DNA of 59,500 nucleotides, the filler included. It is 2 parts of 2 records of this genome, joined end to end, with 100 filler letters (N's around TTAATTAATTAA, not from the genome) between each part and the next. Parts side by side here need not be neighbours in the genome. Positions count along the whole stretch, not along the records: positions 1 to 27,840 come from SRR20825006_2705; 1 more part is not named here. One strand, 5' to 3'. The position numbers and the translations under genes are program-made. This document shows positions 9,341-12,304 of this stretch, piece after piece. Positions within the stretch are counted from its first letter, which is position 1. The number at the start of each line of letters is the position of its first letter. The notes under the pieces were generated by a model. That model was not told the origin of the DNA. It worked only from the letters and a program-made list of their open reading frames with translations, and ran no database searches.

Positions 9341-9450
9341 GGAACGCTTATCCAGACTGTTGTCTTTTAATCTGGATGTTTCATCGCATGACTGTGCGCG
9401 TTTCAGCAACCACGCATGTTATGAACACTGCGTCACCATAGTCTTCGCCA

Positions 9451-9687
9451 TCAGCGGCGTGCGGACTTGCTCCGCGACGGCGGCAGAAGGCCTTCGCGCT
9501 GAAGCTGCTTCTTGCGCTGTTTACGCAGGCGGCGAACGGCCTCGCCAGCTTCGCGATTGCGGCGTTCGGAAGGCTTTTCGTAAGCACGGCGGGCACGCAT
9601 TTCACGGAACATACCCTCGCGCTGCATTTTCTTTTTCAAAGCGCGCAGTGCCTGTTCAACATTATTGTCTCTTACGACGACTTGCAT
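9451..9687 (-). CDS. rpsU: 30S ribosomal protein bS21
   Basis: [25 protein letters not shown]...YEKPSE; AGGAGGT RBS at 9691-9697. Confidence 0.96.
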
Positions 9688-9700
9688 GAAACCTCCTGAT

Positions 9701-9807
9701 CTGGAGCAACCCCGAGAACGCTGGACACCGGTTTTCCGTCCGGAATTGCATCACAAAATAAGTAGACGCGATTTCGCGTTTCCCAAAGAAACGCGCAAAC
9801 GCTCTGG
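9701..9807. repeat. Degenerate RIME/BRU-RS-like intergenic palindromic element of Rhizobiales
   Basis: About 107 bp bounded by CTGGAGC...GCTCTGG; contains CCGGTTTTCCGTCCGGAATTGC core and CGCGTTTC-CCAAA-GAAACGCG hairpin; matches my recollection of the RIME consensus. Confidence 0.65.
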
Positions 9808-9864
9808 TGTCACACCACCAGCATCGAACGGGCCCGGCTAAATGCAGGCCGCTGATGTGGCAGC

Positions 9865-9890
9865 AAAAAAGGCCGGGACTTACCCGGCCT
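9865..9890 (-). terminator. Intrinsic terminator
   Basis: Minus strand AGGCCGGG-TAAGT-CCCGGCCT followed by a T-run. Confidence 0.85.
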
Positions 9891-9902
9891 CATCCTGTGC
9901 CG

Positions 9903-10006
9903 CTGCCAGTACATCCGTGGTCAGCGACAGCGAATCCCTTTGCTTCAGGTCCGACGCGGAAAGCTCCGTCCTGTTCGCCCAAACTGCCAGTACATCCGTG
10001 GTCAGC
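9903..10006. repeat. Perfect 23-nt direct repeat (two copies, 9903-9925 and 9984-10006)
   Basis: CTGCCAGTACATCCGTGGTCAGC occurs twice with 81-nt period. Confidence 0.95.
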
Positions 10007-10351
10007 AGGAACGAACTTCAATCAGACCGTATGCGTGTCACGCAGGGCATTCCGCCAAACGTCAGTTGAAAGACGATTTTCGCTGCAAATCGAGGCTGAA
10101 ACGATTGCCAAAGCAATCGCGTTATCAGAAACGGCCTGAGAGCGAAAACGGTGCAACTATGTCAGGATCGGAAAAACCAACCCACAAAACCGCATGACGC
10201 GGCAAAGGCACCTTATCTTGGCGGACAGCCCTGACGGTTATTCAACGAAGGGCAATTCGCAATGACCGTGATATAGGCGCTCCTTGCCGCAAAGACAACC
10301 CCCTGCTGCAAAAGAGACAGGAAAGCGCGCTGGAACAAGAGCCTGAACCCG

Positions 10352-12304
10352 CTACACCTGCAGGGCTTCAAGCCCTACAAACAAATTCAGTGCTTCCGGA
10401 TTGGAGAGTGCCTCCTTGTTCTTTACCGGCCGGTTGTGAACCACGTCCCGCACTGCCAGTTCAACAATCTTGCCGGACTTGGTGCGCGGAATGTCCGCAA
10501 CCGCGATGATCTTGGCCGGAACATGGCGCGGTGACGCTCCGGTGCGAATACGCGCCCTGATCTCCTTCTCCAGTGCCGCATCCATCAAAACGCCTTCGGC
10601 AAGCCGAAGGAACAGGACCACGCGCACATCATCATCCCATTCCTGCCCGATACAGATGGCCTCGAGCACTTCCGGCATCTGTTCAACCTGATTGTAAATC
10701 TCCGCTGTGCCGATCCGCACCCCACCGGGGTTCAGCGTCGCGTCCGAACGCCCGTGGATGATGATACCGTCATGTTCGGTCCATTCTGCAAAATCCCCAT
10801 GACACCAGACATTCTCAAATTCGGAAAAATAGGCAGCCCGATATTTCTCCCTTTGCGGATCATTCCAGAAGCCGACCGGCATATTGGGAAACGGCTTTGT
10901 GCAGACAAGCTCTCCCTTTACGCCCCGCACCGATTGGCCCGTCTCATCCCAGATATCAACCGCAAGCCCGAGCCCCGCCCCCTGGATCTCCCCCTTCCAG
11001 ACGGGCTTGACCGGAATACCCAGCACGAAGCACGACACGATATCGGTTCCACCGGAAATCGAGGCAAGCTGTACATCAGGCCTGATCCCCTCATAGACGA
11101 AGGAAAAGCCTTCCGGCGAAAGCGGCGATCCGGTTGAAGTGACCAGACGCAGGCTGGAGAGATCGTGATGCTCGACCGGTCTATACCCCGCCTTGCGCAC
11201 GGCATCGATATATTTCGCGGACGTTCCAAACACCGAGAACCGCTCTTCCTCGGCATAACCAAAAAGCACCTCCGGCCCCGGTGCGAAAGGTGAACCATCA
11301 TAAAGACAAAGGGTTGCGCCGCTGGCCAGTCCACTGGCCAGCCAGTTCCACATCATCCAACCGCAGGTGGTGAAGTAAAACAATTTTTCGCCGGGTGTGA
11401 GCGAGCAATGCAGCCGGTGCTCCTTCAAATGCTGTAACAACACCCCCCCGGCAGAGTGAACGATGCACTTTGGAACTCCGGTCGTGCCGGAAGAAAACAA
11501 GATGTAGAGCGGATGGGAAAACGGAAGACGGGTATACTTGATTTTCGCAGGCGAAAACGGCTCCAGAAACGCTTCCAGCATCTCGCCCTGCTCCAGTGAC
11601 TGAGCCAGCGCATTGCCATCGCCGGCAAGCGGCACGATGACGGTCGGCACATTGAGCGCTGCGGATATCTGAATAACCTTTTCGGCAATGTTCTGCGTCT
11701 TGCCGCTGTACCAGTAGCCATCGCAACAGAAAAACAGTTTCGGTTCTATCTGACCGAACCGGTCCAATACGCCATTGACACCGAAATCCGGCGAACAGGA
11801 GGAAAACACAGCACCGACCGAGGAGACCGCCAGCATGATCGCAATCGTTTCCGGCATATTCGGCATCATCGCCGCAACGCGGTCACCGGGTCCAAGCCCT
11901 TTTTTCACAAGCGCCTGCTGCAACCGCGAAACAGTCTCCTTCAAACGATCCCAGCTCCAGCGGCAAGCGAGTTTATCCTCGGCCCGAAAAATGATCGCAT
12001 CGCCGTTGGCGGTCTGCTCCAGAAGATTTTCAGCAAAATTCAGCCGCGCATCCGGGAAGAAACGTGCGTTGAGCATATCGTCGCCATCGACCAGGATGCG
12101 ATCACCTTTCTCACCGCGTACATCACAGAAATCCCAAAGCGCAGACCAGAATTCCCCGCTCTCTTCCACTGACCAGCGGTGAAGATCATCATAGCTGTCA
12201 AACGTGACTTCGCAGCGTTTAGCACAGAAATCCATAAACCGGGTCACCGGTGCCTCCGCGATCGCACCCGCGCACGGTTGCCAAAGGGGTGTATTTTCGC
12301 TCAT
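10352..12304 (-). CDS. Acetoacetate--CoA ligase
   Basis: FSSGTTGVPKCIVH AMP-binding motif, TTCGWMMWNWL, SISGGTDIVSCF, GRSDATLNPGGVRIGTAEIY. Confidence 0.95.
   Translation of the reverse strand: MSENTPLWQPCAGAIAEAPVTRFMDFCAKRCEVTFDSYDDLHRWSVEESGEFWSALWDFCDVRGEKGDRILVDGDDMLNARFFPDARLNFAENLLEQTANGDAIIFRAEDKLACRWSWDRLKETVSRLQQALVKKGLGPGDRVAAMMPNMPETIAIMLAVSSVGAVFSSCSPDFGVNGVLDRFGQIEPKLFFCCDGYWYSGKTQNIAEKVIQISAALNVPTVIVPLAGDGNALAQSLEQGEMLEAFLEPFSPAKIKYTRLPFSHPLYILFSSGTTGVPKCIVHSAGGVLLQHLKEHRLHCSLTPGEKLFYFTTCGWMMWNWLASGLASGATLCLYDGSPFAPGPEVLFGYAEEERFSVFGTSAKYIDAVRKAGYRPVEHHDLSSLRLVTSTGSPLSPEGFSFVYEGIRPDVQLASISGGTDIVSCFVLGIPVKPVWKGEIQGAGLGLAVDIWDETGQSVRGVKGELVCTKPFPNMPVGFWNDPQREKYRAAYFSEFENVWCHGDFAEWTEHDGIIIHGRSDATLNPGGVRIGTAEIYNQVEQMPEVLEAICIGQEWDDDVRVVLFLRLAEGVLMDAALEKEIRARIRTGASPRHVPAKIIAVADIPRTKSGKIVELAVRDVVHNRPVKNKEALSNPEALNLFVGLEALQV

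Follow-up and report, generated by a model that had tools for sequence, protein, structure and literature searches.

The structured element on the minus strand of the window (the whole 59.5-kb stretch of DNA that was analysed, along which all coordinates are counted) is most likely a tandem duplication of the alpha-r35b module and therefore a variant of an RNA family that is already known. The module consists of a hairpin whose 9-nt loop, CGGAUGUAC, is invariant and of a Rho-independent terminator ~10-20 nt further on; in Hyphomicrobiales it ends many cold-shock mRNAs as well as the ar35 (Smr35B) sRNAs. This hairpin-plus-terminator unit was known by 2011-2012; what is added here is a tandem variant which lacks a cold-shock (csp) gene and lies upstream of rpsU. 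Taken as a whole, the element is considered, with slightly better than even confidence, to be a csp-less cold-shock 3'-end module that would serve as a decoy and/or as an attenuator ahead of rpsU. The features of the locus are collected in Table 1.

Table 1. Features of the rpsU locus in the window, in the order of transcription.
Feature	Position	Strand	Description
AMP-binding acyl-CoA synthetase	10352-12304		650 aa; co-oriented, upstream of the element
Promoter-like site	10271..10299	-	GTTGTC-N17-CTATAT; candidate transcript start, TSS inferred near 10264
Non-coding spacer	10017..10270	-	position of the csp 5'UTR and coding sequence in Martelella radicis
Hairpin copy 1	9973..10016	-	extended stem (GUUCGUUC/GGGCGAAC) capped by the invariant 20-mer UGACCACGGAUGUACUGGCA; repeat 9984-10006; loop CGGAUGUAC
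Linker	9930..9972	-	four GGA that are not conserved, and a predicted small hairpin (CGGAGCUUUCCG)
Hairpin copy 2	9898..9929	-	stem GUCGCUG/CAGCGGC; repeat 9903-9925; flank CGCTGTCGC; inside the 34.4-bit ar35 match
Rho-independent terminator	9862..9891	-	GAGGCCGGG-UAAGU-CCCGGCCUU and U-run; third element of the alpha-r35b module
rpsU (ribosomal protein S21)	9451..9687	-	Pfam PF01165 Ribosomal_S21, 70.2 bits; co-oriented, downstream

An earlier note on this DNA had described a perfect 23-nt repeat on the minus strand, a longer stem beneath each copy and a strong terminator after them, and all three were recovered. There are exactly two copies of the 23-mer, GCTGACCACGGATGTACTGGCAG, in the window, with their loops 81 nt apart; no third copy is found even with three mismatches, and none is expected from 100 dinucleotide-preserving shuffles. 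The minimum free energy (MFE) of 9860-10045(-) is -80.2 kcal/mol (z = -3.81), a stability reached by 0 of 200 shuffles, and the MFE fold contains both extended stems. The terminator stem, 9891-9869(-), has nine pairs, seven of which are G-C, and is followed by a T-run. A weak second terminator-like hairpin (ACGCGAAATCGCGT with a T-rich tail) is located at 9766-9779(-), between the main terminator and rpsU. The note had also counted seven GGA in this RNA; the count stands for 9865-10030(-), compared with a window-wide mean of 2.2 per 166 nt on the same strand, and lies in the top 1% of the window (at least seven are reached in 0.76% of 1187 sampled 166-nt windows). However, five of the seven are not conserved and three (at 9967, 9952 and 9895) are predicted to be paired, with P(unpaired) ≤0.39 at every base and ≤0.09 at most bases; the only clearly exposed GGA of the predicted ensemble are those of the two repeat loops. 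Because the repeat is absent from the shuffles, the fold is stable and GGA is in excess, the observation is considered real rather than a product of chance, and a structured RNA with two identical, sequence-constrained GGA loops and a terminator is borne out by both fold and conservation.

At the Rfam gathering thresholds no RNA family is found in the whole window. Under permissive settings the sole meaningful match is ar35 (RF02346) at 9862-9955(-), with 34.4 bits (E = 1.5e-4) against a gathering threshold of 45; the upstream repeat gives a separate ar35 match of 18.8 bits. Scores of the same model in 20 scanned loci range from 36 to 137 bits, and one csp 3'UTR exceeds the cut-off (L018, 47.3 bits). 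Over all 20 positions, both repeats are identical to the ar35 hairpin 2 consensus uGACCaCGGAUGUACuGGCa (model positions 67-86); the window shares with ar35 a second hairpin with the loop GGAUGUA and a Rho-independent terminator as the last hairpin. The variable 5' hairpin of ar35 is not present, 30 model positions being answered by six residues, and a second copy of hairpin 2 stands in its place. Hairpin and terminator without the ar35 5' domain is the arrangement of the alpha-r35b / RFMSmelB053 3'UTR module; the attachment of this module to a csp gene is absent from the window and present in the syntenic locus of Martelella radicis (L064). On these matches the element is very likely of the alpha-r35b type. 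It therefore belongs to a described family (ar35 / alpha-r35b / RFMSmelB053), an outcome of the Rfam search that the earlier note had itself counted against its proposal.

The likeness to the stand-alone ar35 RNAs (Smr35B, SmelB053) thus extends to the second hairpin, the type of terminator and the bacterial order, whereas the window differs in having a conserved hairpin where ar35 has a variable one, in the absence of a sigma-70-like site within 200 nt upstream and in a likely longer transcript: the ar35 sRNAs are given as 139-144 nt in the texts available, and the RNA predicted for the window is ~400 nt, although a nearer, unrecognised start or processing of the transcript is possible. The alpha-r35b 3'UTRs of cold-shock genes, such as SmelC521, also share hairpin and terminator with the window, and in M. 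radicis the module sits directly behind csp; the window differs from them in the missing csp and in the tandem arrangement of the hairpin.

The module itself has been described from two sides. In the available text of del Val et al. 2012 (PMC3346310), ar35 consists of three hairpins, the hairpin-plus-terminator module alpha-r35b is found both in stand-alone sRNAs and in 3'UTRs, and targeting is assigned to the variable 5' hairpin. The corresponding text of Reinkensmeier et al. 2011 (PMC3927594) defines RFMSmelB053 as SmelB050, SmelB053 and SmelC691 with the conserved loop GGAUGUA, and lists 33 related 3'UTRs, 29 of which (29/33) are on cold-shock genes; a role in the control of mRNA decay is suggested and sequestration is floated, and the stem-loops in the 3'UTR of E. 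coli cspA mRNA, with control by Hfq, PAP I and RNase E, are cited. Those stem-loops are likewise a structured 3' end of a cold-shock mRNA that is thought to govern decay; no sequence relationship to the present hairpin is shown, and the analogy comes from outside the Alphaproteobacteria. In Valverde et al. 2008 (PMC2573895, as far as its available text goes), smrB35 and its paralogue smB5 gave array signals in several stress conditions, and the table of a 2020 review (PMC7143759) gives SmelB053 with three copies, RpoD/RpoH-type promoters and no functional name. A literature search by family names and motif letters returned no paper whose available text gives the module a partner or a function. 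The motif CACGGAUGUAC and its variants occur in no relevant paper found by the search, the literature retrieved on cold shock, UTR-derived RNAs and cspA holds nothing on the hairpin, and the accessible part of the GspR/CspA5 paper has no relation to it. Tandem copies or contexts such as rpsU may be listed in Table S2 or the figures of PMC3927594.

A scan for the exact 20-mer, with one genome per species, finds at least 120 loci. Among the matches listed, carriers include Rhizobium, Mesorhizobium, Brucella, Phyllobacterium, Aureimonas, Martelella, Bradyrhizobium and Xanthobacteraceae, and further Reyranella, Parvibaculum and a Rhodospirillum-labelled MAG. Among the same 120 loci, 62 have the end of a csp gene within 100 nt upstream on the same strand and four have csp 101-600 nt upstream; 51 have no csp, and a further three with a short upstream flank end in a csp-like C-terminus. 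By comparison, rpsU follows the hairpin in four of the 120 (40 of which have only short flanks), such that the hairpin tracks csp and not rpsU among the loci listed. A sigma-70-like site lies within 200 nt upstream in 37 of the 55 listed loci without adjacent csp and with enough flank, versus 7 of the 62 csp loci; the 55 accordingly behave like stand-alone genes. Within 140 nt after the hairpin, 93 of 121 loci (the matches listed and the window) have a strict terminator, at a median distance of 21 nt; in the window the distance is 12 nt. The number of GGA per module is seven in the window, four in L064 and two in the MAG locus L031, and one to five, mostly one to three, in the single modules among the matches listed.

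As the listed loci were chosen by an exact 20-mer, variation within the core was followed in 121 genomes of the order by a scan that tolerates mismatches, with the reversed pattern as control. With up to three mismatches the hairpin is found in 36 of the 121 genomes; the control gives 21 matches, which places the three-mismatch matches near noise. With up to two mismatches there are 35 matches in 20 of the 121 genomes scanned. The two-mismatch matches are compensatory at one stem pair in 14 of 16 cases: CGACC..GGCG nine times (U-A to C-G), TCACC..GGGA three times (G-C to C-G) and CCG..CGG twice (A-U to G-C). All 35 matches (35/35) retain GGA in the loop. Covariation extends to the two pairs that flank the 20-mer, where 47 double-change cells are counted and shuffles give 23.2 ± 3.2; in about half of the sequences an internal loop takes the place of these pairs. 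Conservation of the loops in homologues, with covariation of the stem, had been proposed as a check in the earlier note, and both are seen; from the comparison of homologues the element is judged to be a real hairpin, the stem being kept by structure and the 9-nt loop by sequence.

Several observations made in the same survey concern individual carriers. The sequence TTAA-N7-TTAA, often as TTAACC-N5-TTAA, is found upstream in 15 of the 55 stand-alone loci (L009, L013, L021, L027, L030, L048, L052, L053, L071, L078, L080, L083, L090, L091 and L094), at 55-144 nt from the hairpin, and in 0 of the 62 csp-linked loci among the matches listed; since it equals the CtrA-box consensus, it suggests a cell-cycle-controlled subclass of ar35-like sRNAs. 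One genome of the order (G053) carries, on several contigs, eight hairpin copies with at most one mismatch, three of which have single changes in the loop (GAUGAAC in two, GGAGGUAC in one). A contig labelled as a Terriglobia MAG (L029, an Acidobacteriota bin) features an alphaproteobacterial-type csp end with the exact hairpin, which probably reflects misbinning or a transfer. The Brucella sRNA BASRCI27 (cut-off 59.8) is matched below threshold at L037:1587-1721(-), with 40.3 bits, and at L024:308-474(-), with 38.8 bits; the former match directly adjoins an ar35 gene that lies on the other strand.

Of the relatives found, M. radicis (L064/G001; Hyphomicrobiales) is the nearest: its rpsU is 79% identical, and its second hairpin and terminator are 86% identical (query positions 468-535 against G001:C7:30566-30634). 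The tally of 98 of 101 genomes in the comparison of relatives includes the unpublished genome G083, and nothing else makes use of this tally. In M. radicis a promoter and a long 5'UTR precede csp, which is followed by a hairpin, a second hairpin at a repeat spacing of 86 nt, the terminator and, after ~60 nt, rpsU. Three other loci (L018, L019 and L058) have the order csp, hairpin, terminator, 95-aa ORF and rpsU, and L031 has csp, two hairpins, a terminator and an ORF of the same ~95-aa kind. Tandem hairpins are rare, being present in two of the 120 loci listed (L031 and L064) and in the window; all three have the same two-hairpin-plus-terminator fold. Copy 2 of the window and copy 2 of L064 have the flank CGCTGTCGC in common and, by this flank, are considered orthologous. 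The linker between the hairpins is conserved neither in sequence nor in GGA content in L064 and L031, and the upstream spacer of the window cannot be aligned to the nearest relative. The linker of L031 resembles the last csp codons, which points to a csp 3' end plus hairpin as the unit that was presumably duplicated.

Two small ORFs accompany these loci. The ~95-aa ORF (..YRPGD.VVLK...RYRVR...ENFER.I) is conserved, lies in L058-type loci between the csp terminator and rpsU (L058:1586-1870(+); also L017, L018 and L031) and matches no Pfam family. A conserved ~74-aa ORF (MT..SKSRQ...KTLRLREARLAKE), also with no Pfam family, follows the csp-hairpin-terminator unit in many Rhizobiaceae (L035:1607-1828(+); similar in L008, L014, L034, L036, L039, L040, L046, L069 and L079). 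The rpsU-linked csp genes (L017, L018, L019, L031, L058 and L064) feature a long and very strongly conserved 5'UTR, ~170 nt upstream of csp. The Rfam model of the enterobacterial cspA thermoregulator gives sub-threshold scores of 26-45 bits against a cut-off of 78 (L010, L018, L024 and L064), with matches that also span coding sequence.

Within the window, the co-oriented rpsU that the earlier note had placed downstream is confirmed by Pfam, and the link of the element to it is real; the gene starts 182 nt beyond the end of the terminator stem (9869 to 9687), and a luciferase-like monooxygenase is next after it. Two ORFs that cross the element, of 43 aa and 44 aa (the latter at 10022-10156(-)), gave no family in a Pfam search. 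No sequence in 9690-10420(-) comes closer than the promoter-like site, with its two mismatches, to the alphaproteobacterial promoter consensus CTTGAC-N16-18-CTATAT. Together with the following 20 nt it aligns locally to the csp promoter and TSS of L064 with a score of 32 (shuffles 18.4 ± 2.4; 0 of 300 reach it), and the top window match of an nhmmer profile built from 42 csp upstream regions falls at 10308-10262(-), with E = 0.023; an HMM of six csp 5'UTRs of the subfamily had no match at the promoter or locus in the window. The site at 10299-10271 is a likely start of the hairpin transcript, although this assignment is weak. Between 9866 and 9690 no promoter-like site is found with up to four mismatches.

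The csp gene itself was not recovered: a csp protein used as tblastn query has no match in the locus (best match anywhere in the window, E = 0.49), the nhmmer model of the csp coding sequence has no match in 10030-10352, and in the searches for csp remnants only the promoter/TSS stretch aligns. Because no csp was found, the promoter-like site aligns to the csp promoter of L064 and the synteny with rpsU is kept, the locus is probably a csp-rpsU cold-shock operon which has lost its csp gene. In the available text of PMC4424878, O'Connell and Thomashow 2000 are cited for cspA-rpsU of S. meliloti, a polycistronic cold-shock operon; the window resembles this operon in the order promoter, (csp), intergenic terminator region and rpsU, and differs in the absence of the csp coding sequence.

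Under the csp-less cold-shock reading, transcription from ~10264 would yield a non-coding RNA of ~400 nt ending at the terminator, which would limit transcription into rpsU while some read-through occurs. The two identical loops may be recognition sites for a conserved putative partner, which would be neither CsrA nor ProQ and probably not Hfq; a binding protein other than CsrA is conceivable. In csp mRNAs the same hairpin probably sets the stability or processing of the 3' end; in the csp-less RNA it may act as a two-site decoy for the putative partner and/or as part of an attenuating leader of rpsU. The decoy or stability mechanism is a tentative step in this scheme, somewhat less likely than not. 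For the family the decoy idea is a published speculation (Reinkensmeier 2011, PMC3927594, in its available text); it is attractive here because the hairpins are perfectly kept although csp is gone. An extension of it, that the csp-less operon has turned into a dedicated two-site decoy whose CGGAUGUAC loops titrate the factor that reads the csp 3' hairpins and thereby couple csp mRNA stability to rpsU read-through, is unlikely; if true, it would represent CsrB-like sponge logic in which the titrated partner is not CsrA, in a lineage that lacks both CsrA and ProQ.

Two further candidates were considered and rejected. ProQ/FinO (PF04352), considered as a general 3'UTR binder, turns up in just 2 of the 121 genomes and is missing from that of M. 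radicis (G001). For a kissing partner in cis, the 237 kb of flanks hold 21 loop-complementary seven-mers on the same strand, where ~43 are expected, and 31 on the other strand.

Among the alternatives, the one that survives best, though it is still rather unlikely, is that the element is a cis attenuator or leader of rpsU, in which a csp-type promoter drives transcription, the hairpins and terminator stop most transcripts and read-through rises in the cold, for example by Csp-type antitermination. Csp proteins of E. coli function in antitermination. The short gap in L064, the recurrence of the csp-rpsU linkage in L018, L019 and L058, the S. meliloti operon (PMC4424878, as cited in its available text) and the absence of a consensus-like promoter between the window terminator and rpsU are all consistent with it; however, the 182-nt gap could hide a non-consensus promoter, and stand-alone sRNAs carry the same module. 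As most carriers have no rpsU downstream, rpsU cannot explain the conservation of the hairpin. A match to a ribosomal-protein (S21) leader was also looked for, and no Rfam leader is found in the window. The attenuator reading is nevertheless compatible with the csp-less cold-shock module favoured here.

It is quite improbable that the element is a functionless relic, the leftover 3'UTR of the lost csp gene which remains intact by chance or through recent loss. The missing csp and the lack of conservation of the linker and the upstream spacer would suit such a relic; against it, both 20-mers equal the family consensus and both stems are intact in a locus where rpsU is only 79% identical to that of the nearest relative and the spacer is unalignable, and the terminator and promoter-like site are kept as well.

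A trans-acting sRNA, with the exposed loop CGGAUGUAC as the seed for base-pairing with mRNAs, is a still poorer candidate. A single-stranded 9-mer that does not vary is what is typically seen in seed regions, and the members of ar35 are catalogued as trans-encoded sRNAs in the available texts of PMC3346310 and PMC3927594; however, the same loop is found in more than 60 csp 3'UTRs among the matches listed, no complementary motif is enriched in the flanking transcripts, and the 5' hairpin to which del Val 2012 (PMC3346310) assigns targeting is absent from the window. In addition, Smr35B is absent from the Hfq-co-precipitating sRNAs listed in the accessible text of PMC3346310, and no target is reported in the available portions of PMC3346310, PMC3927594 and PMC7143759.

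The proposal of the earlier note, a Csr/Rsm-type sponge that would titrate CsrA/RsmE through multiple GGA loops, is dismissed as extremely improbable: no Csr/Rsm model matches, CsrA is not found in the sampled lineage, and the five further GGA are not conserved. The CsrA SELEX consensus is RUACARGGAUGU, which the loop ACGGAUGU resembles; the ACGGAU of the loops fits AYGGAY, and GGA in hairpin loops, the GGA excess, a terminator at the RNA end and a possible decoy logic are shared with CsrB, RsmX/Y/Z and TwoAYGGAY. The window differs from these in having only two conserved GGA sites, in repeat loops 81 nt apart, and in its covariance-model results: among the Csr/Rsm models only PrrB_RsmZ matches, its 12 bits (E = 5) falling short of the cut-off of 44 and its position being that of the terminator (9866-9896), and TwoAYGGAY, CsrB, RsmX and RsmY are not among the eight Rfam matches at E ≤10 in 9400-10450. 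CsrA (PF02599) is found in 0 of 5 hairpin-bearing genomes and in 0 of 301 genomes of the order at the Pfam cut-off (one match falls below it, at 23.7 bits), with positive controls in E. coli, B. subtilis and T. maritima, figures which speak for the lineage rather than for the source organism. Moreover, versions with a single hairpin in csp 3'UTRs predominate in the family.

The main value of the csp-less tandem module is corrective, as it belongs to a known family and gives no evidence that Alphaproteobacteria have a Csr system. Few short RNA elements of the Hyphomicrobiales are as strictly conserved as this hairpin. That a doubled module has outlived its csp gene argues that the module works on its own and not only as an appendage of csp mRNA; the doubled, csp-less form would thus be a convenient natural bait for the factor that binds it.
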